A stretch of DNA of 64,000 nt from an uncultured Gemmatimonadaceae bacterium (GTDB lineage Bacteria; Gemmatimonadota; Gemmatimonadetes; Gemmatimonadales; GWC2-71-9). Location of the stretch: the NCBI GenBank assembly GCA_964598655.1, contig CAZRCT010000003.1:49006-113005 (forward strand), read 5' to 3'. A program made the translations under genes and the position numbers. Positions 1,266 through 19,338 of this stretch are shown piece by piece (positions within the stretch are counted from its first letter, which is position 1; every line of letters starts with the position of its first letter). The notes below the pieces were generated by a model. That model was given only the letters and a program-made list of their open reading frames with translations, did no database searches and was not told where the DNA came from.

Positions 1266-2357
1266 TCACGCCGGCTCGAACACCCGCTGGGCGCGGGTGG
1301 CCGCGTACTCGGCGCGCGCCCGGGCGACGGCGTCGATGAGCGGGCTCGGATCGAAGCGCACCGGGTCGGTGCAGGGAAGCCCGGTCTCGCGGCTGGCGGC
1401 CTCGCAGGCGGCGCGGGCCTCGGCCTCGGTCATGTCGTAGGTGTTGAGCGAGATGCCGATGGTCTTCGTGGGGTGGACGAAGCCGGCGACGCCCTCGTAC
1501 AGCTTCACGTACTCCGAGAGCGGCGGGATCTTGAGCCAGCCGGCCTTGCGGTAGTCACCGATGTAGTCGCGCGTGGCCTGGTGGCAGAGGATGAGCGCGT
1601 CGGGGCAGGAGCCGTGCAGCAGCCCGCAGGTGACGCCCGAGTAGCCCGGGTGGTTGAGGCTCCCCTGCCCCTCCACCAGCACGATGTCGGCGTCCTTGCT
1701 CCCCTCGAGCACCAGCCACTCCGCGGCGCCGGCGATGAAGTCGGCCACCACGGCGTCCACCGCGATGCCCCACCCCTCGATCATGATGCCGGTCTGGCCG
1801 GTCGCCACGAAGCGGGTGCGCAGGCCCCGCTCATTGAGCTTCTTCGTGATCTGCAGCTGGCTCGTCATCTTGCCGACGTTGCAGTCGGTGCCCACCGTCA
1901 GGATCACGAAGGGCTCGACGTGCTTGGCCTTGCCGCTTGCCACGGGAAGGTTGGCGGGGGGGCGGCGGAAGTCGTAGATCTCGGTCCCCCGCGCCTTGGC
2001 GCGCGCGGCGATGGCCGCGTCGTCCCCGATGAAGGTGTGGAGGCCGCTCCAGATGGAGCACCCGGCGTCCACCGCCTCGAGCAGCCAGCTGCGCCACTCC
2101 TCCGGCAGCTTCCCCCCCACCGGGGCGATGCCGATGAGCACCGCATCCGGCTTGAGCGTGAGCGCCTCCGTCATGGAGCCGAGCACGGGCGTGGCCCCGC
2201 CGAAGCCGAGGACGTCCTGGACCGTCTTGCCGGCGTGCTGCCGGTCGAGGACGGCCGCGATCCGCTCGGGACGGTAGCGGATCACGGAGTTCGCGGTCTT
2301 GGAGGTGAGCGGGCCGAACTCGCCATCGGCGAGGATCAGGAAGCGGGAGCCGTGCAT
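1266..2357 (-). CDS. DUF1611 family protein (DgcN-like putative N-acetyltransferase)
   Basis: The ORF track gives 1266-2411. I prefer the internal ATG at 2357 (MHGSRFLILADGEFGPLTSKTANSVIRY), which matches the usual N-terminus of DUF1611 proteins. Family assignment is from memory of the family sequence. Confidence 0.7.
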   Translation of the reverse strand: MHGSRFLILADGEFGPLTSKTANSVIRYRPERIAAVLDRQHAGKTVQDVLGFGGATPVLGSMTEALTLKPDAVLIGIAPVGGKLPEEWRSWLLEAVDAGCSIWSGLHTFIGDDAAIAARAKARGTEIYDFRRPPANLPVASGKAKHVEPFVILTVGTDCNVGKMTSQLQITKKLNERGLRTRFVATGQTGIMIEGWGIAVDAVVADFIAGAAEWLVLEGSKDADIVLVEGQGSLNHPGYSGVTCGLLHGSCPDALILCHQATRDYIGDYRKAGWLKIPPLSEYVKLYEGVAGFVHPTKTIGISLNTYDMTEAEARAACEAASRETGLPCTDPVRFDPSPLIDAVARARAEYAATRAQRVFEPA

Positions 2358-2436
2358 GGGGCGTCGGGAAAGGGGAACAGGGGCGCGCGGAACCGGCCGG
2401 TAAGCTACCACGGGCAGCGGCGGGAGGGAACGAGAC

Positions 2437-2458
2437 GGGGGTGCCGGTTGGCACCCCC
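2437..2458 (-). terminator. GC-rich hairpin downstream of pspA
   Basis: GGGGGTGCC-ggtt-GGCACCCCC: a perfect 9-bp stem 27 nt after the pspA stop. No clear U-tract. Confidence 0.5.
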
Positions 2459-2484
2459 GTGGGCCTGCGCCGCCCGGCAGTGGG

Positions 2485-3255
2485 CTAGGCCTGCTTCCCG
2501 GGCTGGTCGTCGTCCACCAGCTCGGCGTCGATGGTGTCGCCGCGGCCGAGCTGGCGGGTCTCGCCGCCCTTGCCGCCCGGGCCGATGAGGCCCATCCGGG
2601 CCTTGAGCTCGAGCAGCTGCTGGTCGGGCGCGCCCTTGTACTCGAGGGCCTGGAACTGCTGCATCAGCTGGTCGCCCTCGAACTCGTTCTGCAGCTCGGC
2701 GGCGGCGATGGCCTTGCGCTCGTTCTGCTCAATCTTCTCGGTCATCCGCTCAAACGACTCGAAGGCCGACTTGTCGGACATCCCCGACATCGTCTCCTGG
2801 ATGCGCTGCTGCGCCTCCGCCCGCCGCGCCCGGGCAATGAGGATGTTCTTCTTGCGCTTGGCTTCCTCGATCTTGTCGTTGAGCTGGCGCAGCGAGGCCT
2901 TGAGGTTCTCGGTCTCCGCCTTGTGCTTCACCCAGGTCTCGTGGAGCTGCTGGGCGCCGGTCATGGCCTCGTTGTAGCGCATGAGCGCCTGCTTGGCCAG
3001 GTCGTCGCGGCCCTCCTGCACCGCGAGCATGGCGCGCCGCTCCCAGTCCTCGGCCTGCTTGCGCATGGCCTCGGCGTCGGCCTGGAGCTTCTTCTCGTCC
3101 GCGATGGCGCTGGCCACCTGCTGCTTGGCCTTGGCCAGCTGACCCTTCATGTCGATGATCAGCTGGTTCAGCATCTTCTCGGGATTCTCGGCGCGCGTGA
3201 TGAGGTCGTTGATGTTCGACCGGATCATCGTCGAGAGACGGTCAAAGATCCCCAT
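2485..3255 (-). CDS. pspA: PspA/IM30 family protein (phage shock protein A)
   Basis: 256 aa. The N-terminus MGIFDRLSTMIRSNINDLITRAENPEKMLNQLIIDM closely parallels E. coli PspA ([27 protein letters not shown]...). The rest is long coiled coil. Confidence 0.95.
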   Translation of the reverse strand: MGIFDRLSTMIRSNINDLITRAENPEKMLNQLIIDMKGQLAKAKQQVASAIADEKKLQADAEAMRKQAEDWERRAMLAVQEGRDDLAKQALMRYNEAMTGAQQLHETWVKHKAETENLKASLRQLNDKIEEAKRKKNILIARARRAEAQQRIQETMSGMSDKSAFESFERMTEKIEQNERKAIAAAELQNEFEGDQLMQQFQALEYKGAPDQQLLELKARMGLIGPGGKGGETRQLGRGDTIDAELVDDDQPGKQA

Positions 3256-3258
3256 GTC

Positions 3259-3651
3259 TTACTCCCGGAAGGGCGCCAGGGCGCCGAGGTGCGTGGCCAA
3301 CGCGAGCGTCAGGGAATCGAAGCTCGCCTCGAATTCGTTGAAGTCCAGGTTCTCCAGCTCCAGCGTGTCCACCAGCACCACGCGGTTGCCCTCGAGCCCG
3401 TAGGCGCCATGCACGAGGTCGCGGGCGTTGTACGCCAGGAGCGCGCGGAAGAGCGCCGCCTGCCGCTCCGCCCCCTCGGGCAGTTCCATGACGGCCACCC
3501 GCAGGATCACCACCGGCGGCGCGAAGTGTACCACCACCTCCGCCCCGGCGGTCGTCTTCACCAGCCAGAGGTTGGGCTCCACCTCGCTGACCTCGGCCGA
3601 GCCGCTGTCCAGCCGGTCGAGGAAATCCTCGATGTCTTCCTTGCCGCGCAT
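3259..3651 (-). CDS. YbjN / CesT-Tir chaperone-like protein
   Basis: The ORF track gives 3259-3681. The ATG at 3651 has GGGAGG 5 nt upstream. The alpha/beta pattern (LWLVKTTAGAEVVVHF...VVILRVAVMELPE...ALFRALLAYNARDLVHGAYGLEGNRVVLVDTLELENLD) is typical of YbjN-like folds. Assigned by resemblance only. Confidence 0.6.
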   Translation of the reverse strand: MRGKEDIEDFLDRLDSGSAEVSEVEPNLWLVKTTAGAEVVVHFAPPVVILRVAVMELPEGAERQAALFRALLAYNARDLVHGAYGLEGNRVVLVDTLELENLDFNEFEASFDSLTLALATHLGALAPFRE

Positions 3652-3698
3652 GCCTGCCTCCCGAATGGGGCCTGCCTGCAATCTAACCGGGGCCCGCG

Positions 3699-4022
3699 CT
3701 AGCGAGCCGCCGGCACCGCCTCGGGCGGGGTGTCCGCCTCGTCGTCCGCCCGGGGCGGCGCCACGAGCAGCCGCTCGGCGAACTCCAGCCGTTCCTCCAC
3801 CTCCCGCAGGCGGTGGGCCAGCGCGTCGAGCTCCTCCAGCCGCTCGGCCAGCAACTGCTCGGTCTCTTCCTTTTCCCGGATCGTCTGGTCGCTGCCGAAG
3901 GCCCCCATGATCCGCTCCGTGCCCCGCCCGATGGCCCGGCCGATGGGGCCGAGGAGCACCGCCACACTGATGGCGGCGGTCATCATCCAGAATCCGAGCG
4001 CGCCGATGCTGTCACCAAACAT
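3699..4022 (-). CDS. Array member 13: small TM + coiled-coil protein, ERLEFAERLL variant
   Basis: 107 aa with GGAGG 5 nt upstream of the ATG. Sequence: MFGDSIGALGFWMMTAAISVAVLLGPIGRAIGRG...REVEERLEFAERLLVAPPRADDEADTPPEAVPAAR. It shares the DEADTPPEA.PAAR tail with member 12. Confidence 0.8.
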   Translation of the reverse strand: MFGDSIGALGFWMMTAAISVAVLLGPIGRAIGRGTERIMGAFGSDQTIREKEETEQLLAERLEELDALAHRLREVEERLEFAERLLVAPPRADDEADTPPEAVPAAR

Positions 4023-4036
4023 GCCCGCCTCCGGGG

Positions 4037-4357
4037 TCAGCGCGCCGCCGGCAGCGCCTCGGGCGGGGTATCCGCCTCGTCGGGCAGTGCCAGCCGGTCC
4101 TGCCGTGTGAGGAGCCGCTCGGTGAAGTCGAGCCGCTCTTCCAATTCCACCAGACGGGATTCGCGGGCCTCCAGTTCCTGCATCCGGGCCCGCAGCTCCT
4201 CGAGTTCCGCCGGGGCCGCGGCGCCCGCACCGTGCTCGATCCGCCGGGCCCAGGCCACGACGAGCGGACGGACCAGGTACACCGCCGCACCGAGCATCAC
4301 GAAGCCCGCCGTCCCGGCGAGCAGCTGGTTCATCAGTTCCGGGGCAATCGCGAGCAT
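4037..4357 (-). CDS. Array member 12: small TM + coiled-coil protein, ERLDFTERLL motif
   Basis: The track ORF extends to 4396. The ATG at 4357 has GGAGG upstream and lies 1 nt after the member 11 stop. Sequence: MLAIAPELMNQLLAGTAGFVMLGAAVYLV...LVELEERLDFTERLLTRQDRLALPDEADTPPEALPAAR. Confidence 0.8.
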   Translation of the reverse strand: MLAIAPELMNQLLAGTAGFVMLGAAVYLVRPLVVAWARRIEHGAGAAAPAELEELRARMQELEARESRLVELEERLDFTERLLTRQDRLALPDEADTPPEALPAAR

Positions 4358-4358
4358 C

Positions 4359-4670
4359 TCAGCCTCCCCTCGGCAGCCGGGCCGCTTCATCGTCACGCTG
4401 GCGAGCCAGCAGGCGCTCGGTGAAATCCAGGCGTTCCTCGAGTTCGTACATCCGCGCCTGCTGGCCCTCGAGCTCCTGGACCCGGGCCCGCAGCTCTTCC
4501 ACCTCGACGCGGAGCGCGGGATCGGCGCCGCCCTCGGGCCCGCCGAGGCGCCGGCCCCAGCCCTGCATGACGGGCGTGAGCAGCCGGCTGCCGAGGAACG
4601 AGACGCCGAGCACCACCCCGATGAGGCTCATGGTCTCGCCCGGGCCCATCATGATCAGGCTCAGCAGCAT
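4359..4670 (-). CDS. Array member 11: small TM + coiled-coil protein, ERLDFTERLL motif
   Basis: 103 aa: MLLSLIMMGPGETMSLIGVVLGVSFLGSRLL...GWGRRLGG...MYELEERLDFTERLLARQRDDEAARLPRGG. Closest to member 10. Confidence 0.8.
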   Translation of the reverse strand: MLLSLIMMGPGETMSLIGVVLGVSFLGSRLLTPVMQGWGRRLGGPEGGADPALRVEVEELRARVQELEGQQARMYELEERLDFTERLLARQRDDEAARLPRGG

Positions 4671-4990
4671 CAGCCCGCCTTTCCCGGACCCAGCCGGCCC
4701 GGTTCCGCCTCACGCTGCTGCAGCAGCAGGCGCTCGGTGAAGTCCACGCGATCCTCGAGCTCGAGCAGCCGCTGCCGTTCCTCCTCGAGCTGCTGCAGGC
4801 GCGCCCGCATTTCCTCGAGATCCTCACGCAGGCGGGGGTCCGCCTCGCCGCTGTGACCCGCCAGCCGCCTGCCGATTCCCGTCATGATGGGGTGGAGCAG
4901 CTTGTAGGTCACGGTCATGGCGCCGAGGGCCATCACGGCGATGAGGATCCCCTCGCCGGGCCCCTGCAGCAGGACGAGCGCGAGCAGCAT
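4670..4990 (-). CDS. Array member 10: small TM + coiled-coil protein, DRVDFTERLL variant
   Basis: 106 aa: MLLALVLLQGPGEGILIAVMALGAMTVTYKLL...GIGRRLAG...LLELEDRVDFTERLLLQQREAEPGRLGPGKAG. Confidence 0.8.
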   Translation of the reverse strand: MLLALVLLQGPGEGILIAVMALGAMTVTYKLLHPIMTGIGRRLAGHSGEADPRLREDLEEMRARLQQLEEERQRLLELEDRVDFTERLLLQQREAEPGRLGPGKAG

Positions 4991-5361
4991 CAGTGCGGCC
5001 CTCCCGACTCAAGCCGGCTCACGTCCGCCTCCCGGTGCTGCACCAGCAGGCGCTCGGTGAAGTCCAGCCGCTCCTCGAGCTCAAGGACGCGGCCCTGCAT
5101 CTGCTCCAGCTCCGCCACGCGGGCCTGCAGGTCGGTGATCTCGTCCAGCGACGGTGGCGCCTCCCGCTGGGCGGCCAGCGCCCGGTTCCGGCGCCAGGCA
5201 AAGACGAACGTGGACAACGCGAAGATGCCGAGCACCACCTGGTCCTCGATCGCCGGGCCAGCCATCTCGGCGAGCATTCCCGCGAGGAAGCCGGTGGCCG
5301 TGAGGTGGATGATGACCTCCACGCCGTCCAGGCCCAGCGTCTGCTTGAGTCCCACGCTCAC
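4990..5361 (-). CDS. Array member 9: two hydrophobic segments + coiled coil, ERLDFTERLL motif
   Basis: 123 aa: ...VIIHLTATGFLAGMLAEMAG...VVLGIFALSTFVFAWRRNR...VLELEERLDFTERLLVQHREADVSRLESGGPH. ATGA overlap. Confidence 0.8.
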   Translation of the reverse strand: MSVGLKQTLGLDGVEVIIHLTATGFLAGMLAEMAGPAIEDQVVLGIFALSTFVFAWRRNRALAAQREAPPSLDEITDLQARVAELEQMQGRVLELEERLDFTERLLVQHREADVSRLESGGPH

Positions 5362-5717
5362 CCCTCCCCGGCTCCGAGACGTTCCGCCTCACGGTGGCGC
5401 ACCAGCATCCGCTCGGCGAAGTCCAGGCGCTCTTCGAGCTCGAGTACCCGCGCCTGCCCCTGCTCGAGCTCCGCCACCCGATCCTCGAGCTCCGCGACCC
5501 GCTGCGCCGCCACCTCCCCGGTGGTGTCGCCCCGCTCCAGGCCGGCGCGCCGGCGCCGCCACGCCAGCACCCCGAACGAGGCGAGGAACGCCACCGACAC
5601 GCCGATCTCCTCCTGCGGCTGGGTCATGGCGCTCAGCATGACGGCGGCCGCGATCGTGGCGCCCGACTGGATCAGGAAGTCGACGAAGTCGATCCCGACG
5701 TAGCGCCGGAAGCTCAC
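5358..5717 (-). CDS. Array member 8: two hydrophobic segments + coiled coil, ERLDFAERML variant
   Basis: 119 aa: ...SGATIAAAVMLSAM...IGVSVAFLASFGVLAWRRRRAG...VLELEERLDFAERMLVRHREAERLGAGEG. ATGA overlap. Confidence 0.8.
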   Translation of the reverse strand: MSFRRYVGIDFVDFLIQSGATIAAAVMLSAMTQPQEEIGVSVAFLASFGVLAWRRRRAGLERGDTTGEVAAQRVAELEDRVAELEQGQARVLELEERLDFAERMLVRHREAERLGAGEG

Positions 5718-6001
5718 GCGCCCCCCGGCCCGAGGCGCTCGGCCTCGCGCTGCTGGGCCAGGAGCCGCTCCGTGAAGTCCAGACGCTCCTCGAGCTCGGC
5801 CACGCGGCCGCGGAGGGCGTCCGAATCATCGAGGCGCGCCCGCAGGTCGGCGAGTTCCGCCTCGAGCTCGAGCGGGACGCCACCCTTGCCACGCTCCACG
5901 CGCTTGACCATGACGTTCACGAAGGCGATGACGGCATACACCGATGCCCCCGCCATGCCCATCCCGGCGAACACGCCGAACAGCTTGATGAACTCGTCCA
6001 T
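5714..6001 (-). CDS. Array member 7: small TM + coiled-coil protein, ERLDFTERLL motif
   Basis: 95 aa: MDEFIKLFGVFAGMGMAGASVYAVIAFVNVMV...VAELEERLDFTERLLAQQREAERLGPGGA. TGATG junction. Confidence 0.8.
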   Translation of the reverse strand: MDEFIKLFGVFAGMGMAGASVYAVIAFVNVMVKRVERGKGGVPLELEAELADLRARLDDSDALRGRVAELEERLDFTERLLAQQREAERLGPGGA

Positions 6002-6357
6002 CAGCCCTCCCCCGGCCGCAGGCGCTCCGGCTCCCGCTGCTGCGCCAGCAGCCGTTCGGTGAAGTCCACCCGCTCCTCCAGTTCCATGACCCGGTGCTGC
6101 AGTTGGTCCATCTCCGCGAGGCGGGCCCGCAGGTCCTCGACCTCCTGCCGCAGGGCACTATCCCCGGTGCCCTTTCCCTCGATTCGCCGCCCAAGCGCCC
6201 GCATCACGGGCCACAGGACCACCGTACACGCCGCCAGGAACCCCAGCGTGATCAGCAGGATCACGGGGGCGGGCATCACCTCCCACGGCGCCGGCGTGTG
6301 CGGGAAGTCCGGCAGCGGAGGCGGCTCCGGCACCTGGACCACAACTTGCCACATCAC
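6001..6357 (-). CDS. Array member 6: small TM + coiled-coil protein, ERVDFTERLL variant
   Basis: 118 aa with a Pro-rich N-terminal extension, then the TM helix PVILLITLGFLAACTVVLWPV, GRRIEG, and ...VMELEERVDFTERLLAQQREPERLRPGEG. ATGA overlap with the member 5 stop. Confidence 0.75.
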   Translation of the reverse strand: MMWQVVVQVPEPPPLPDFPHTPAPWEVMPAPVILLITLGFLAACTVVLWPVMRALGRRIEGKGTGDSALRQEVEDLRARLAEMDQLQHRVMELEERVDFTERLLAQQREPERLRPGEG

Positions 6358-6614
6358 GGCTCCCCTCCGGACAGCGACTCGCTCTCCCGCTTTGCGGTGA
6401 GCAGCCGCTCGGCGAAGTCCATGCGCTCGTGCAGTTCCGACACCTCGAGGCGCAGGCGCTCCACCTCCTCGAGCAGGGCCGGGTCGCCGGTCCCGGCCAC
6501 GCCCATGGGCCCGTGCCGGATCCGGTCGCTGATGGCCCGGCCGATGTCCGTCTTGGAAATGGCGATCAGCATGCCGCCACCAAAGACGATCAGGATGAAG
6601 AGGGTCCCCTCCAT
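6354..6614 (-). CDS. Array member 5: small TM + coiled-coil protein, ERMDFAERLL variant
   Basis: 86 aa: MEGTLFILIVFGGGMLIAISKTDIGRAISDRIRHG...LHERMDFAERLLTAKRESESLSGGEP. Closest to member 4. Confidence 0.8.
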   Translation of the reverse strand: MEGTLFILIVFGGGMLIAISKTDIGRAISDRIRHGPMGVAGTGDPALLEEVERLRLEVSELHERMDFAERLLTAKRESESLSGGEP

Positions 6615-6623
6615 CGGCGCCTC

Positions 6624-6875
6624 CTACTGCCCGTCGGGCAGTTGCTCGGCCTCGCGTCCGCGGGCCAGCAACCGCTCGGTGAAGTCCACCCGCTCCTGCA
6701 GCTCGGTCAGTTCCTGCCGCATCCGGTCCAGCTCCTCGTAGACCGCCGGGTCGCCCTCGGGGACCTCGCGGTGGCCGCGGATGCGGTCCGCGATCGCCTT
6801 GCCCACGGGGCTGAAGGAGATGGCGATGGCGGTGCCGCCGCCAAAGATCAGGATCAATGCGAGGATGTCTTCCAT
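6624..6875 (-). CDS. Array member 4: small TM + coiled-coil protein, ERVDFTERLL variant
   Basis: This is the C-terminal 83 aa of track ORF 6624-7154, starting at the ATG at 6875 (TGATG junction). Sequence: MEDILALILIFGGGTAIAISFSPVGKAIADRIRGH...LQERVDFTERLLARGREAEQLPDGQ. Confidence 0.8.
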   Translation of the reverse strand: MEDILALILIFGGGTAIAISFSPVGKAIADRIRGHREVPEGDPAVYEELDRMRQELTELQERVDFTERLLARGREAEQLPDGQ

Positions 6876-7147
6876 CAGGCTCCTTCTCCCGGCGTGCCGG
6901 ACCGGTCGCGGATCATCAGCCGCTCCGTGAACTCGAGCCGCTCCTGAGTTTCGGCGAGTTGCTGCTGCAGGCTCTCCATCTGCTCCCGCAGTGTCCCGAG
7001 GGCCGCCAGCACCTCGGGATCGGTCCCTGCCGCCGCCCGCCGCGCCTCGGTCTGCAGCCGAGTGATGGCCACGGCCCCCTTCATGATCAGACCGGTGATG
7101 ACCACGCCGCTCAGCATCCCGAGGATGGGAATCAGCTCGCCGGCCAT
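6875..7147 (-). CDS. Array member 3: small TM + coiled-coil protein, ERLEFTERLM variant
   Basis: 90 aa: MAGELIPILGMLSGVVITGLIM...AETQERLEFTERLMIRDRSGTPGEGA. Its start shares 1 nt with the member 2 stop (TGATG). Confidence 0.8.
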   Translation of the reverse strand: MAGELIPILGMLSGVVITGLIMKGAVAITRLQTEARRAAAGTDPEVLAALGTLREQMESLQQQLAETQERLEFTERLMIRDRSGTPGEGA

Positions 7148-7425
7148 CAGCCACCTCCCGGCAGGCGGTCGGGCGCCCTGCCTTGCGCCAGCAATCGTTC
7201 GGTGAAGTCCAGCCGCTCCTGCGTCTCCGCCACCTGGTGCTGCAGCTGATCCACCTGGTCCCGAAGCGCCTCGACGGCGGCGATCAGGTCGGGATCGGCA
7301 CCCGCCACCGCCTTCCGCCCCTCCGCCCAGCTGTGCGCGATACGGACCAGGCCGTAGGTCATGGTGCCGATCACCGCGATGCCGGTGAGCATGCCGAAGA
7401 CCGGCACGACCACCTCGGGGCCCAT
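7147..7425 (-). CDS. Array member 2: small TM + coiled-coil protein, ERLDFTERLL motif
   Basis: This is the C-terminal 92 aa of track ORF 7147-7740, starting at the ATG at 7425, 2 nt after the member 1 stop. Sequence: MGPEVVVPVFGMLTGIAVIGTMTYGLV...AETQERLDFTERLLAQGRAPDRLPGGG. Confidence 0.8.
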   Translation of the reverse strand: MGPEVVVPVFGMLTGIAVIGTMTYGLVRIAHSWAEGRKAVAGADPDLIAAVEALRDQVDQLQHQVAETQERLDFTERLLAQGRAPDRLPGGG

Positions 7426-7427
7426 CG

Positions 7428-7706
7428 TCAGCCTCGCGGCAGCTGCTCGGGCGTCCTGCCCTGCGCCAGCAGCCGCTCGGTGAAGTCGAGCCGTTCCTGC
7501 GTTTCCGCCAGCTCGTGCCGCACCCCGTCCAGCTCCTGCCGCAGGTCGGCCACCTCGCCCCGGAGGAGATCCACGTCGCCCCCGCCGCCGCCCGGGCCGG
7601 ACCGGATCCGGTGGGCGATGGCCTTCCCGATTTCCGAGCGGGAGATGAACACCGCCCCGACCGTCAGGAAGAACGTCATCGGAATCAGGACTTCGGGTCC
7701 GGACAT
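7428..7706 (-). CDS. Array member 1 of 13 (transcription order): small TM + coiled-coil protein, ERLDFTERLL motif
   Basis: The ORF track starts at a TTG (7721). The ATG at 7706 has GAGGCCGAGG upstream and aligns with member 2 (MSGPEVLIPMTFFLTVG vs MGPEVVVPVFGMLTG). C-terminus: AETQERLDFTERLLAQGRTPEQLPRG. Confidence 0.8.
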   Translation of the reverse strand: MSGPEVLIPMTFFLTVGAVFISRSEIGKAIAHRIRSGPGGGGGDVDLLRGEVADLRQELDGVRHELAETQERLDFTERLLAQGRTPEQLPRG

Positions 7707-7827
7707 CCTCGGCCTCGGCAACTTGTGGGAATCGGATCACCCGTGTGGCACCCTGCGGTCCACCAGGGTCAGGGCAGTACGGAGAGATGTTTCAGCCTGT
7801 TTCATAGGCTGACAGGCCAGTTTCCGG

Positions 7828-8715
7828 TCAGTTCTTGGACTTCCCCTTGATCTGGACCAGCCGCTCCCGGGCCAGCTTCCGGCCGGTGGGGGTGGCGGCC
7901 AGGCCGCCCCCGGCGGTCTCCCGGTAGCGGACATCCATGCTCCGGCCGATCTCCCCCATGGTGTCGATGACCTCGTCCACGGGGATGGGGAAGCGGACGC
8001 CGGCCAGTGCCATCTCGATGCCGGCGAGGGCCATCGCGGCCCCGGTGGCGTTCCGGTAGACGCACGGCACCTCGACCAGCCCGCCGAGCGGGTCACAGAC
8101 GAGCCCCAGGGTGCCCTGCATGGTGAGCGCGACGGCGTGGACCGCCTCCTCGGGTGTGCCCCCCAGCAGCTCGACCCCCGCGCCCGCCGCCATGCCAGCC
8201 GCCGCCCCGGTTTCCGCCTGACAGCCGCCTTCGGCCCCGGACAGCGAGGCCCGCACGGCCACCACGGCCCCGATGAGGCCGGCCGTCGCGAGCGCCCGCA
8301 CGAGGGCCTCGTCCGTGACCTGCCGATGACCGGCCAGCCCAAGCAGCACGCCCGGGAGCACACCGGCCCCACCCGCCGTGGGGGCGGCGACGATCACGCC
8401 CATGGCGGCGTTCACCTCCTGCACTGCCAGCGCCCGGGCGATGGCGTCGGTGAACACGGTGCCGGCGAGAGGGCCGCGGGCGTGGGTCATCCGGTTGGCG
8501 TCGCCGCCGACGAGGCCGCTGACGCTCTTGAAGTCACCGGGGAGGCCCTGGTCCACGGCGCCACGCATCACCTTGAGCGCCCGCGTGAGCGCCGCCTCCA
8601 CTTCCGCGCGGCTCCGGAGCCCGGCGTCCACCTCGGCGCGCAGGGCCACCTCGCCGAGCGAGATGCCGTCGCGCTCGGCCTCGGCGAGGGCGTCGGCCAG
8701 GGCGGTGATCCTCAT
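7828..8715 (-). CDS. sdaAA: L-serine ammonia-lyase (iron-sulfur dependent), alpha subunit
   Basis: 295 aa, Gly/Ala-rich SDH_alpha-type sequence. It follows the beta subunit directly with a 4-nt overlap. Confidence 0.9.
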   Translation of the reverse strand: MRITALADALAEAERDGISLGEVALRAEVDAGLRSRAEVEAALTRALKVMRGAVDQGLPGDFKSVSGLVGGDANRMTHARGPLAGTVFTDAIARALAVQEVNAAMGVIVAAPTAGGAGVLPGVLLGLAGHRQVTDEALVRALATAGLIGAVVAVRASLSGAEGGCQAETGAAAGMAAGAGVELLGGTPEEAVHAVALTMQGTLGLVCDPLGGLVEVPCVYRNATGAAMALAGIEMALAGVRFPIPVDEVIDTMGEIGRSMDVRYRETAGGGLAATPTGRKLARERLVQIKGKSKN

Positions 8716-9709: not shown

Positions 9710-11563
9710 TCACCCGATCATGGCGATGAACCCGTCCCCGGCGTCGGGGCGCGGGGGTGGCGGCGGCTCGGGCGGGGGTGCAGCCCCGAAGACCTGGGCC
9801 GACCGGATGTTGGCCTCGATCGCGGTGAGCATGCCCTCGATCTCCTCCAGCGCCTTGCGGAGGGCGAAGGGGTACGCGAGCCGGTAGCCCATCAGGCTGA
9901 GGCCCCCCAGCACGGCCGCGCCGCCCAGCGCCGGGAGGGCCGCGAGGGCCCCAAGGCCGAGGGCGGCAAACCCCACGGCCCCACCGACGGCGGCGCCCCC
10001 GGCAGCCACGCTGCCGGCGATCCAGTAATCGACGACGAGGTTCTTGCGCAGGCCGGGGCGGAGGTCGCCGTAAACGGTCACCTCGGTGCCACCGCCGCCG
10101 GCCGCGACGGGGTGCAGGGTGACGTTGAGCTGGAAAGCCTCCAGCTGGTACATGCGGTAGGTGAAGGGCGTGTACGACTCGAGGGTGCCCGCCCCGGAGA
10201 GGCCGCCCTTCATGAAGTTGGGCACCTCGAACACCAGCACCCCGCCGCTGAACGGATGCCCCCCCACCGTGTCGCGCAGCCGGAGGAGGTAGGGGCGCGC
10301 CGTGACCACGCGTCCCATGGCCTCGAGGGTGACCTTGGGGCTGGCCTTGATGCGGCGCGAAACGGAGAAGCTCCGCTGCTCGGTGCCAAGGAGCCGGGTG
10401 ATGCGCCGATCCTCGCGCGTGCCGCCGGCGGGCACCGGCCGGCCCGGGGCCCGGTCGCCCGGCTGCTCGGCGAGCGCCAGCGCCACAAACTCCGGCGCGA
10501 TGCCCACCTCGGCCGCCGCCAGCTCCACGTCCTTCAGCCGGTAACCGCCCGTCGGCAGCGAGGGCGAGATGCCGGTGAGCCCGCCTTCCTGCGAGCGGAG
10601 CTGGAGCCGGGTGGCCGCCTCCGCCTGCAATTGCGCCGCCCGGAGCCAGATGGCCTGCGCCTGGTCCTCGGCGATGACGCGGTCGGCGGACGTGACGGCG
10701 GCCAGCTGGGTGGCCGACCGCTCCAGCGCGAGCGCCAGCGCCTCGGCGAGCGCTTCGCCGGTCATGAAGCGCGCCTCCGGCTCGCGGGCCAGGCAGCGGT
10801 CGATCACCTCGACCAGCGGGCGGGGCACGGTGGTGGTCAGGCTGGCGAGGGACGGGGCCTGCCGGCTCGCCACGGCCACGAGCACCGCGGCGGCGTTGTC
10901 GCCCTCGAAGGGGAGGCGGCCGGAGAGCGCATAGAAGCCGGCGACGCCGAGCGAGTAGAGGTCGCTCCGGCCGTCGAGGGGCTGGCCGTTGGCCTGCTCG
11001 GGGCTCATGTAGTGGACCGTGCCGACGACCTCCCCCTGCTGCGTGAGAGACGAGGCCGACTGGTCCCGCGCGATGCCGAAGTCCGTGACCACCGCCCGCC
11101 CGGTGGCGCGCTCCACCATGATGTTGGCGGCCTTGATGTCGCGGTGCACCACGCCGCGCGCGTGCGCGTACGCCAGCGCCCACGCCGCCTCCCGGAGGAT
11201 CCGCACCACCTCCTGGGGCGGCAGCGGCCCGCGGTCGCGCACCCGCTCGGCCAGGTTCTGGCCGTCGATGTAGGCCATGGTGAAGTACGCGAACCCGCCC
11301 ACCTCCTCGGCCCGGTAGATCGGGACGATGTTGGGATGGGAGAGCTGGGCGGCAGTGCGGGCCTCGCGGAGGAAGCGCTCCCGCACGCCCGGCAGCGCGC
11401 CGAGGTGGGGCGGCAGCACCTTGATGGCCACGGGGCGCTCGAGGCGCGCCTCGCGGGCCAGGTACACCACGCCCATGCCGCCCCGGCCAAGCTCGCGCTC
11501 GAGGGTGTACTGGCCCGCGAGCAGCGGGGCGAGCTGTTCAAGGATCGCGTCGGGCGAGGTCAT
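9710..11563 (-). CDS. Ser/Thr protein kinase with large C-terminal extension and C-terminal membrane helices
   Basis: 617 aa with Hanks kinase motifs (GRGGMGVVYLA, AIK, HRDIKAANIMV, DFGIAR, SPEQ). Gly/Ala-rich hydrophobic segments lie near the C-terminus. Confidence 0.9.
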   Translation of the reverse strand: MTSPDAILEQLAPLLAGQYTLERELGRGGMGVVYLAREARLERPVAIKVLPPHLGALPGVRERFLREARTAAQLSHPNIVPIYRAEEVGGFAYFTMAYIDGQNLAERVRDRGPLPPQEVVRILREAAWALAYAHARGVVHRDIKAANIMVERATGRAVVTDFGIARDQSASSLTQQGEVVGTVHYMSPEQANGQPLDGRSDLYSLGVAGFYALSGRLPFEGDNAAAVLVAVASRQAPSLASLTTTVPRPLVEVIDRCLAREPEARFMTGEALAEALALALERSATQLAAVTSADRVIAEDQAQAIWLRAAQLQAEAATRLQLRSQEGGLTGISPSLPTGGYRLKDVELAAAEVGIAPEFVALALAEQPGDRAPGRPVPAGGTREDRRITRLLGTEQRSFSVSRRIKASPKVTLEAMGRVVTARPYLLRLRDTVGGHPFSGGVLVFEVPNFMKGGLSGAGTLESYTPFTYRMYQLEAFQLNVTLHPVAAGGGGTEVTVYGDLRPGLRKNLVVDYWIAGSVAAGGAAVGGAVGFAALGLGALAALPALGGAAVLGGLSLMGYRLAYPFALRKALEEIEGMLTAIEANIRSAQVFGAAPPPEPPPPPRPDAGDGFIAMIG

Positions 11564-18453: not shown

Positions 18454-19338
18454 ATGTGGGGCTTCATCACGGGACTGTTCAGCCTGCTGCTCTGGATCGG
18501 CCTGCCGCTCCTGGCGTTCGCGGCGTGGACCTACAACAAGCTGCAGAAGCAGGCGCAGGAAGTGCGGGAGGCCACGTCGAACATCCAAGTGGCGGTGGCC
18601 AAGAAGCTCAACCTGGTCAACCAGCTGGGGGACATCGTGAAGAGCTTCCAGGCCAGCGAGCAGTTCACCCACCTCAAGCTGGCGCAGGACAACAACGCCG
18701 CGGCCATCGCGGTGGCCTACGCCCAGTCGGGCGCCATGCTGAGCTCGCTGCTCGGCGCGGCGGACCGCTCGCCGGAGTTCAAGGCCAGCGAGCAGTACCA
18801 CCGGCTGGTGGACAGCATCCAGCACTGCGAGCTCGACATCCAGCAGGCGCGCACCACGCTCAACACGGCGGTCAAGCACTATAACAATGCCTACCTGGCG
18901 TTCCCCACCGTGCTGCTGGCCCCGGTGCTGGGCTTCTCCAAGGCGCCCTACCTCGAGTTCGACGTGAGCGGGAACGTGGACGCCACCGCGCTCAAGAGCT
19001 TCCAGACGGACGACGGGGAGCGGCTCAAGCAGCTGCTGGCGGGCGCGGGCGGCTCGCTGGCCGGGGCCGGCCGGACGCTGGCGGGTGCGGCGGGCCAGGC
19101 GGGGAAGCTGCTGGCGGTGCAGGCGGGCAACGCGGGGAAGCTGATCGCGGCCAAGGCGGCGGAGCGCGGCGCCACCAGCTACTTCTACCTCCCGCGCGGC
19201 GGGGTGCCCCGCGGGCCGGTGCCGCTTCCCACGGTGCGCGAGCTCATCCAGCGGGGCGAGCTCGACGCCGACGTGATGGTGGCGCGCGCCGGTTCCGAGG
19301 AGTGGCAGCCGGTCTCCGCGCTGCCGCAGGACGCCTGA
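18454..19338 (+). CDS. LemA family protein fused to a C-terminal GYF_2-like domain
   Basis: 294 aa. An N-terminal TM helix plus LemA-like helices (YNKLQKQAQEVREATSNIQVAVAKKLNLVNQL...). The C-terminus YFYLPRGGVPRGPVPLPTVRELIQRGELDADVMVARAGSEEWQPVSALP resembles GYF_2/DUF4339. Confidence 0.75.
   Translation: MWGFITGLFSLLLWIGLPLLAFAAWTYNKLQKQAQEVREATSNIQVAVAKKLNLVNQLGDIVKSFQASEQFTHLKLAQDNNAAAIAVAYAQSGAMLSSLLGAADRSPEFKASEQYHRLVDSIQHCELDIQQARTTLNTAVKHYNNAYLAFPTVLLAPVLGFSKAPYLEFDVSGNVDATALKSFQTDDGERLKQLLAGAGGSLAGAGRTLAGAAGQAGKLLAVQAGNAGKLIAAKAAERGATSYFYLPRGGVPRGPVPLPTVRELIQRGELDADVMVARAGSEEWQPVSALPQDA

Follow-up and report, generated by a model that had tools for sequence, protein, structure and literature searches.

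The window, a stretch of 64,000 nucleotides (nt) from contig CAZRCT010000003.1 of an uncultured Gemmatimonadaceae bacterium, carries 13 consecutive genes on its minus strand (7706-3699) whose products are small inner-membrane proteins of a large, unnamed family from Gemmatimonadota. According to our analysis, genes of this family form a conserved, tightly packed operon that consists of a variable number of small-protein genes, an optional CesT/Tir-like gene and pspA. The protein family is undescribed, whereas the type of system, a PspA operon with small membrane partners, is known. An earlier note on this DNA had described the 13 open reading frames (ORFs) and did not mention the neighboring CesT/Tir-like gene and pspA. 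The obvious candidate as partner of the array proteins, namely PspA, alone or together with the CesT-like protein, is encoded directly downstream, and the array is to be regarded as a component of a Psp operon.

The 13 ORFs are real genes. All of those listed in the earlier note were found, and its account of their motifs and hydrophobic segments proved exact. The products, 83-123 amino acids (aa) long, share a common plan, in which a membrane helix at the N-terminus is followed by a basic stretch, then by a coiled coil and the motif ER[LVM][DE]F[TA]ER[LM][LM]. Numbered from the first gene of the array, copies 1, 2, 7, 9, 11, and 12 carry the form ERLDFTERLL, and the other seven carry variants of it. 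Five residues of the motif (E, R, F, E, and R) never vary, either among the aligned 13 window copies or among the 93 family members compared. Two hydrophobic segments are present in copies 8 and 9, and one in each of the remaining copies.

The array opens with copy 1 (7428..7706; 92 aa, ERLDFTERLL, one transmembrane (TM) segment), which has orthologs in 33 loci and is usually the first gene there as well. It is followed by copy 2 (7147..7425; 92 aa, ERLDFTERLL) and copy 3 (6875..7147; 90 aa, ERLEFTERLM), a lineage-restricted duplicate of the copy 1/2 type for which only one locus holds a reciprocal best hit. Copy 4 (6624..6875; 83 aa, ERVDFTERLL) belongs to the subfamily that is conserved most widely (orthologs in 44 loci) and has an N-terminal/TM part of the form IFGGG...GKAIADRIRG; copy 5 (6354..6614; 86 aa, ERMDFAERLL) is its sister. 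Copy 6 (6001..6357; 117-118 aa, ERVDFTERLL; orthologs in 43 loci) has a proline-rich N-terminal extension ahead of the TM segment. Independent gene calls start it at an ATG one codon after the GTG at 6357 (first base 6354, 117 aa), and this ATG is the more likely start. Next come copy 7 (5714..6001; 95 aa, ERLDFTERLL) and the copies with two hydrophobic segments, copy 8 (5358..5717; 119 aa, ERLDFAERML) and copy 9 (4990..5361; 123 aa, ERLDFTERLL). Copy 10 (4670..4990; 106 aa, DRVDFTERLL) is identical to the database protein P0002, and copy 11 (4359..4670; 103 aa, ERLDFTERLL) is the one that was modelled with AlphaFold2. Copy 12 (4037..4357; 106 aa, ERLDFTERLL) ends in the tail DEADTPPEALPAAR, common to copy 13 (3699..4022; 107 aa, ERLEFAERLL), the last gene of the array.

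All 13 ORFs show the coding signature of a high-GC genome, with a GC content of 0.86-0.93 at third codon positions (GC3) against 0.40-0.48 at second positions (GC2). The same genes were called by other pipelines in three independent assemblies whose DNA is 99.9-100% identical to that of the window, with product lengths of 92, 92, 90, 83, 86, 117, 95, 119, 123, 106, 103, 106, and 107 aa. Junctions between neighboring genes of the window array measure -4, -1 or at most 14 nt, and most starts are preceded by a purine-rich, GGAGG-like sequence. In the conserved C-terminal part, the copies are 61-76% identical to each other at the DNA level; this low identity, together with the invariant protein motif, indicates that the motif is maintained by protein-level selection and not by recent duplication or gene conversion. 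An exception is a 44-nt stretch, 93% identical between 3701-3744 in copy 13 and 4039-4082 in copy 12, which encodes the common tail DEADTPPEA[LV]PAAR; it suggests a recent local duplication or gene conversion confined to the tail. An antisense ORF across copies 8 and 9 (4993-5703 on the plus strand, 236 aa) has a GC3 of 0.85 and gets through a simple GC3 filter, but is one of the spurious long ORFs of 72% GC sequence, not a gene.

The size of the family was estimated with a profile built from the 13 window copies. At least 7085 of 8000 candidates scored among 90% clusters matched the profile, and a HMMER search of 1.84 billion representatives returned 3131 clusters (50% identity) at E ≤ 1e-3 and 778 at E ≤ 1e-10, so that homologs of the same length as the window proteins number in the thousands. 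None of the 120 listed 90%-cluster matches carries a precomputed Pfam domain; they are named either "hypothetical protein" or, when they come from JGI, "Tfp pilus assembly protein PilO." Of the best 79 loci in the species-level genome collection, 78 bear a Gemmatimonadota title, Gemmatimonadales for the most part, and the remaining one is an unclassified "uncultured bacterium" metagenome-assembled genome. The NCBI family members that carry source names are from Gemmatimonadota as well. The earlier note had recognized no named family in these proteins, and this held: no Pfam or NCBIfam model scored above its cutoff for any of the 93 members, matches to PspB stayed below threshold, and SHOCT was not among the families listed.

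Searches also returned metagenome proteins with two to four matches to the motif (P0001, P0245, P0298, and P0241). These contain out-of-frame translations of neighboring family genes, e.g., WLNWKSAWTSPSACC; as frameshift or read-through artefacts, they inflate apparent fusion counts. We rejected the multi-stretch proteins P0001, P0245, and P0298 as real fusions and consider them frameshift/read-through or assembly artefacts.

In the window, the array is followed on the same strand by a gene for a CesT/Tir-like (YbjN-like) chaperone-fold protein (3259..3681; CesT_Tir_1, PF22550, E = 2.1e-28), located 17 nt after copy 13; its true start may be an internal ATG near 3651. Three nucleotides after this gene lies the one for a PspA/IM30 protein of 256 aa (2485..3255, minus strand; PF04012, E = 2.1e-48; TIGR02977, E = 3e-41), which is the last gene of the putative operon. 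Related loci were scanned with a hidden Markov model (HMM) of the 13 copies and ranked by their similarity to copy 1. Same-strand tandem arrays were found wherever the contig allows. The complete arrays number 57 (56 Gemmatimonadota loci and the window) and hold 2-14 copies, with a median of 7. In all 57, pspA lies within about 600 nt downstream of the array; a CesT-like gene stands between the two in about half of the arrays, and otherwise pspA is adjacent. Loci without pspA are those where the contig end cuts the locus or where only one or two solitary copies occur. Packing is tight throughout, as 169 of the 394 within-array junctions are overlaps of 1 or 4 nt and a further 165 measure 0-20 nt. 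Four contexts taken by profile score and viewed with independent gene calls and Pfam marks (L080, L085, L086, and L087) all show four to five small genes, CesT_Tir_1 and PspA_IM30, followed by DUF1611, sometimes with an AI-2E transporter gene in between.

The order of the copies is largely conserved between genomes. Among ortholog pairs, defined as reciprocal best hits between the window and other arrays, 352 of 396 (approximately 89%) agree in their order, and in the closest genomes the series runs 1-2-(3)-4-5-6-7-8-...-13. For copies 1, 4, and 6, reciprocal best hits were obtained in 33-44 loci. This conservation of order indicates that the array is an old ordered gene set rather than a recent amplification, and that its copies are non-redundant. 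Neighboring copies resemble each other (1-3, 4-5, 8-9, 10-11, and 12-13), which fits array growth by local duplication. Among the orthologs of copy 4 (44 loci), the N-terminal/TM part is 71% identical against 58% for the C-terminal part; the membrane segments are thus specific to each paralog and conserved, not free-running diversity. In two loci, some 3.7-4.3 kb of other DNA lie between the ortholog of copy 1 and the remaining array genes (3277-3573 vs. 7899-11491 in L007, and 3305-3571 vs. 7236-10381 in L010).

The proteins are predicted to be inserted in the membrane with the N-terminus outside and the C-terminal helix in the cytoplasm (N-out/C-in). One hydrophobic segment is present in 384 family members and two in 50, including window copies 8 and 9. 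On average, 0.28 lysine and arginine residues precede the TM segment, compared with 3.04 in the 15 residues after it, and 95% of the 384 one-TM members obey the positive-inside rule; it is this charge bias that leads to the predicted topology. The AlphaFold2 model of copy 11, based on the 93-sequence alignment, has a helix at residues 10-42, a loop at 43-50 and an unbroken helix at 51-98 that includes the motif; its mean predicted local distance difference test score (pLDDT) is 85.9 and reaches 97-98 in the long helix.

Column statistics for 438 sequences, anchored on the invariant F of the motif (F0), place hydrophobic residues at the a/d heptad positions -23, -20, -16, -13, -9, -6, -2, +1, and +5, and reveal three successive charge-complementary g/e' pairs (E-17/R-12, R-10/E-5, and R-3/E+2). 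As this combination of regular a/d positions and three complementary pairs is the classical hallmark of parallel coiled coils whose helices are in register, we predict such a structure, which fits proteins that all enter the membrane in one orientation. The cytoplasmic helix would comprise about 45 residues, and the motif E..ER[LV]DF[AT]ER[LM]L would close the coiled coil. After the motif, the tail conserves R+9, E+10, L+14, and P+15, then G. The near-invariant residues E-7, E-4, D-1, F0, and R+3 fall at the outward-facing b, c, and f positions of the heptad register. The coiled coil itself does not require these residues to be conserved, and their conservation therefore speaks for an external partner common to the copies or for packing of higher order.

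The earlier note had read the diverged membrane parts and the conserved motif as a sign of one shared cytoplasmic partner and diversified membrane ends, and it had deemed 13 copies far beyond ordinary paralogy. These views now require some adjustment. The predicted cytoplasmic location of the helix and its outward-facing invariant residues fit a shared partner, but the conservation of the motif is partly explained by coiled-coil contacts between the copies. Mean pairwise identity among the window paralogs is indeed 0.32 in the N-terminal part against 0.50 in the C-terminal helix, yet the membrane parts are specific to each paralog and are kept between orthologs, as seen for copy 4. The number of copies was correct, but the comparison with related genomes that the note had proposed places it at the upper end of the phylum-wide range, so that it is not a unique expansion.

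PspB and PspC in enterobacteria and LiaI in Bacillus act as membrane anchors or sensors for proteins of the PspA family. We see a somewhat better than even chance that the paralogs oligomerize via their coiled coil and dock PspA, directly or via the CesT-like protein, as a membrane anchor or sensor. The paralogs would pair or bundle through the common coiled coil, each contributing a different TM segment. The common cytoplasmic patch would dock PspA, either by itself or through the CesT-like protein, and the array would thereby recruit or regulate the ESCRT-III-like PspA polymer, as its membrane anchor or as a stress sensor. More tentatively, and with some doubt, we suggest a new kind of PspA recruitment module, a combinatorial sensor array that feeds a single effector and in which each single-pass paralog reads a different membrane state with its TM segment; the paralogs would assemble through the shared parallel coiled coil, and the invariant docking patch (E, E, D, F, R) would position or nucleate the PspA polymer at damaged membrane. 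Several points weigh against these proposals. The link between the array and PspA is one of gene neighborhood alone, and both the orientation of the coiled coil and the exposed patch derive from the heptad assignment alone. Ranking by copy 1 biases the sample of loci toward arrays that resemble the one in the window. Solitary members without an adjacent pspA exist, for example beside an M24 peptidase gene in L045 and L059, which means that the family is not exclusively bound to psp operons and hence not strictly tied to PspA. The CesT-like gene is absent from about half of the arrays and so cannot be an obligatory bridge. Finally, a search of the array region for a promoter or regulator found none.

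It could be argued that the array is simply an amplified pspB, that is, that its proteins are divergent true PspB homologs acting exactly as PspB does; we regard this as improbable. In plan, the likeness is considerable: the array proteins, like PspB, are small and, judging from charge bias and the AlphaFold2 model, bitopic and N-out/C-in with one TM helix and a cytoplasmic helical or leucine-zipper-like domain, they are encoded in an operon with pspA, and there is a weak but non-random sequence similarity over the layout of TM helix, basic stretch and coiled coil. TIGR02976 (PspB) matched 53 of the 93 members at E ≤ 1 (best E = 2.3e-4) and PF06667 (PspB) 13 of 93 (best E = 0.0028), and E. coli PspB scored 14.2 bits against the family HMM, a value that 3 of 2000 segment-wise shuffles attained. 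PspB duplicates have also been reported in some operons (Ravi et al., 2024, PMC11237479). However, all the PspB matches lie far below the curated cutoff (15.3 bits for the best window copy, against 51.7), and GspM (63 of 93 members, best E = 8.4e-5) and CcmI (48 of 93) matched about as often, likewise below threshold, which indicates that the PspB signal is largely a generic one of a TM helix plus a helix. The register of the PspB match is one heptad apart between copies 4 and 6. An hhalign comparison of the family with a PspB alignment gave a probability of 11.8% over 16 columns; that alignment holds enterobacterial PspB only, as a search of plasmids for wider diversity returned almost nothing else and the profile-profile comparison stayed narrow. 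PspB lacks the invariant motif E..ER[LV]DF[AT]ER[LM]L. The alignment of E. coli PspB ends before the motif, and its C-terminal end (SILDAEHPNWRDR) lies outside the region that aligns to the family HMM. Furthermore, the array consists of 2-14 ordered paralogs instead of one or two genes, these stand upstream and not downstream of pspA, and no PspC domain was found in the window operon or in the flanking genes scanned, so that the operon is not of the pspABC type. In plan, the array proteins resemble PspB, to which they are perhaps distantly related, but they fall outside the PspB family as it is defined.

The main rival to an anchor or sensor for PspA is that the small proteins build a hetero-oligomeric complex in the membrane that has an independent function, be it as a scaffold, a channel or a membrane organizer. 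PspA and the CesT-like chaperone would be co-expressed in order to put this complex together or to shield the membrane against it, and the small proteins would be clients of PspA and not its regulators. Tight gene junctions are typical of subunits made in a fixed ratio, the order and the TM segments of the paralogs are conserved, the coiled-coil register suits self-assembly, and solitary members occur without pspA. CesT-family proteins are chaperones, and they have been proposed to assist the assembly of membrane-linked complexes (Ravi et al., 2024, PMC11237479). We nevertheless hold such a complex to be unlikely: a range of 2-14 copies in related genomes is hard to square with a machine of fixed stoichiometry, no enzymatic, transport or periplasmic domain is attached to the proteins, and the invariant exposed patch points to an external partner, with pspA as the sole constant neighbor. 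The idea that the ORFs are high-GC repeat artefacts or decaying pseudogenes draws on the frequency of long spurious ORFs on both strands at approximately 72% GC; it is effectively refuted by the frame signature of all 13 ORFs, the invariance of the motif at such low DNA identity, the thousands of same-length homologs, the conserved order with orthologs in dozens of genomes, and the coupled start/stop overlaps with GGAGG-like sequences before most starts.

Apart from PspB, the proposed anchor has a close counterpart in LiaI of the Bacillus subtilis liaIH operon, a small membrane protein whose gene stands immediately upstream of that of the PspA-family protein LiaH and which has been described as a membrane anchor or recruiter of the PspA-family polymer (PMC11237479), a role like the one that we propose for the array. 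LiaI differs in that it is encoded by a single gene and belongs to the multi-TM LiaI-LiaF-TM family, without a long cytoplasmic coiled coil, whereas one hydrophobic segment prevails in the array family and two occur in a minority. No LiaI or LiaF Pfam match was obtained in the scan of eight window copies (E up to 10), nor among the 25 families listed, out of 87, in the scan of the 93 members.

The CesT/Tir-PspA dyad is a published neighborhood class, whose variants add band-7/flotillin, AAA+ ATPase, YqiJ/YuaF, polyamine-metabolism or DUF350 genes (Ravi et al., 2024, PMC11237479). The window carries this dyad, with CesT_Tir_1 3 nt upstream of pspA on the same strand, and the pair recurs in L080 and L085-L087. 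None of the published variants has an array of small TM and coiled-coil paralogs, and about half of the arrays, unlike the dyad neighborhoods, have no CesT-like gene. The word Gemmatimonad does not occur in the main texts of the Psp surveys PMC11237479 and PMC9239133, and full-text literature searches found no paper with the motif strings and none joining Gemmatimonadota and PspA.

PilO and GspM are similar to the array proteins in being bitopic, with a coiled-coil segment after the TM helix, and in giving weak sub-threshold HMM matches (for PilO, 3 of 93 members in Pfam, E ≥ 0.048). The GspM model, however, has 180 positions, mostly of a globular domain, of which the matches cover only about 4-77, and the array proteins end some 15-20 residues after the coiled coil, leaving no room for the C-terminal globular domain of GspM. 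Their charge bias also puts the helix in the cytoplasm, the opposite topology, and no pilus or type II secretion genes were seen near the array in the window, L080 or L085-L087. We therefore rejected the JGI label "Tfp pilus assembly protein PilO," given the lack of a periplasmic domain, the opposite predicted topology and the lack of pilus genes nearby. The PilO name on many JGI/IMG members looks like a propagated annotation error.

Neither SHOCT (PF09851) nor the TatA/TatB family MttA_Hcf106 (PF02416) was matched at E ≤ 10 in the eight window copies or appeared among the 25 families listed for the 93 members, and the likeness to TatA/TatB is confined to the overall layout. SlyX, DUF5798, DUF6611, DUF6752, and WD40_alt were rejected, as they gave only scattered sub-threshold matches of coiled-coil type. 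A sequence search of the PDB found no relative (best E = 0.067, a MukB coiled coil), PADLOC returned no matches, and PHROGs gave a single non-significant match at E = 0.005. The possibility that the motif mimics the "FESFERM" region of PspA alpha-4 was also rejected (hhalign against 58 PspA sequences, probability 0.1%).

PspA, Vipp1, and IM30 are recognized as bacterial ESCRT-III proteins. Their targeting to membranes and their regulation are understood mainly in a few model systems (PspBC/PspF, LiaI/LiaF, and PspM). Here, one whole phylum couples pspA to as many as 14 small membrane proteins in a set order, all of an undescribed family that comprises at least 3131 sequence clusters. Bacterial membrane proteins are not usually encoded in multi-paralog arrays this large, and an ordered, many-paralog layout found across a phylum is surprising among Psp systems, with the function being deduced from neighborhood and sequence. 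The 10-residue invariant motif and the paralog-specific membrane helices offer handles on how a membrane-repair polymer is anchored. If the reading as a sensor array is true, it would explain in concrete terms how the many bacteria without PspBC or LiaI target PspA. If the link to PspA is incidental, a large new family with a clear structural plan would still merit a database entry.

Upstream of the window array lie housekeeping genes for serine dehydratase subunits, a Ser/Thr kinase and a DPP-IV peptidase, and downstream of the operon those for DUF1611 and an ABC ATPase. The 121-nt intergenic region between the serine dehydratase alpha gene and copy 1 (7707..7827, minus strand) is the likely promoter region of the array. 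Neither a sigma-70 consensus site nor a terminator was found in window positions 2200-8000. A sigma-54 promoter, as in E. coli psp, was considered and rejected: GG-N10-GC sites scored against TGGCACG-N4-TTGCW were not enriched over random same-strand controls, and sigma-54-like matches had no conserved position in the 250 nt upstream of 66 arrays. An Rfam search of the whole window gave no matches.

Some wider synteny is shared by the window, L080, and L085-L087, with a DPP-IV/S9 peptidase gene upstream and DUF1611 downstream of the psp locus. An AI-2E family transporter gene often lies between pspA and DUF1611 in the four other loci and is missing in the window, which has additional kinase and serine dehydratase genes between the peptidase gene and the array.

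Solitary members with the N-terminus MDRQSLALLIPI..., encoded away from any pspA, make up a distinct subfamily. It is represented at 9842-10243 and 13099-13434 in L045 and at 9959-10243 in L059, and it occurs also in L039, L041, L050, L051, L069, and L071. In L045 and L059, a solitary member is encoded directly downstream of the M24 Xaa-Pro peptidase gene, and in L045 and L051 a second family member, with two TM segments, is found 2-3 kb beyond the first.

Two further genes of the window deserve mention. One of them (18454-19338, plus strand) encodes a 294-aa protein with a LemA domain (PF04011, E = 1e-20) and a C-terminal GYF_2 domain (PF14237, E = 4e-9). To our knowledge, the fusion of LemA, a family of membrane proteins whose function is unclear, with GYF_2 is not a known combination. 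The other is the gene for the Ser/Thr kinase (9710-11563, minus strand), about 2 kb upstream of the array and on the same strand; its product has a Pkinase domain at residues 19-273, followed by approximately 340 residues without a Pfam match, the last of which form a hydrophobic region rich in Gly and Ala and a proline-rich tail.

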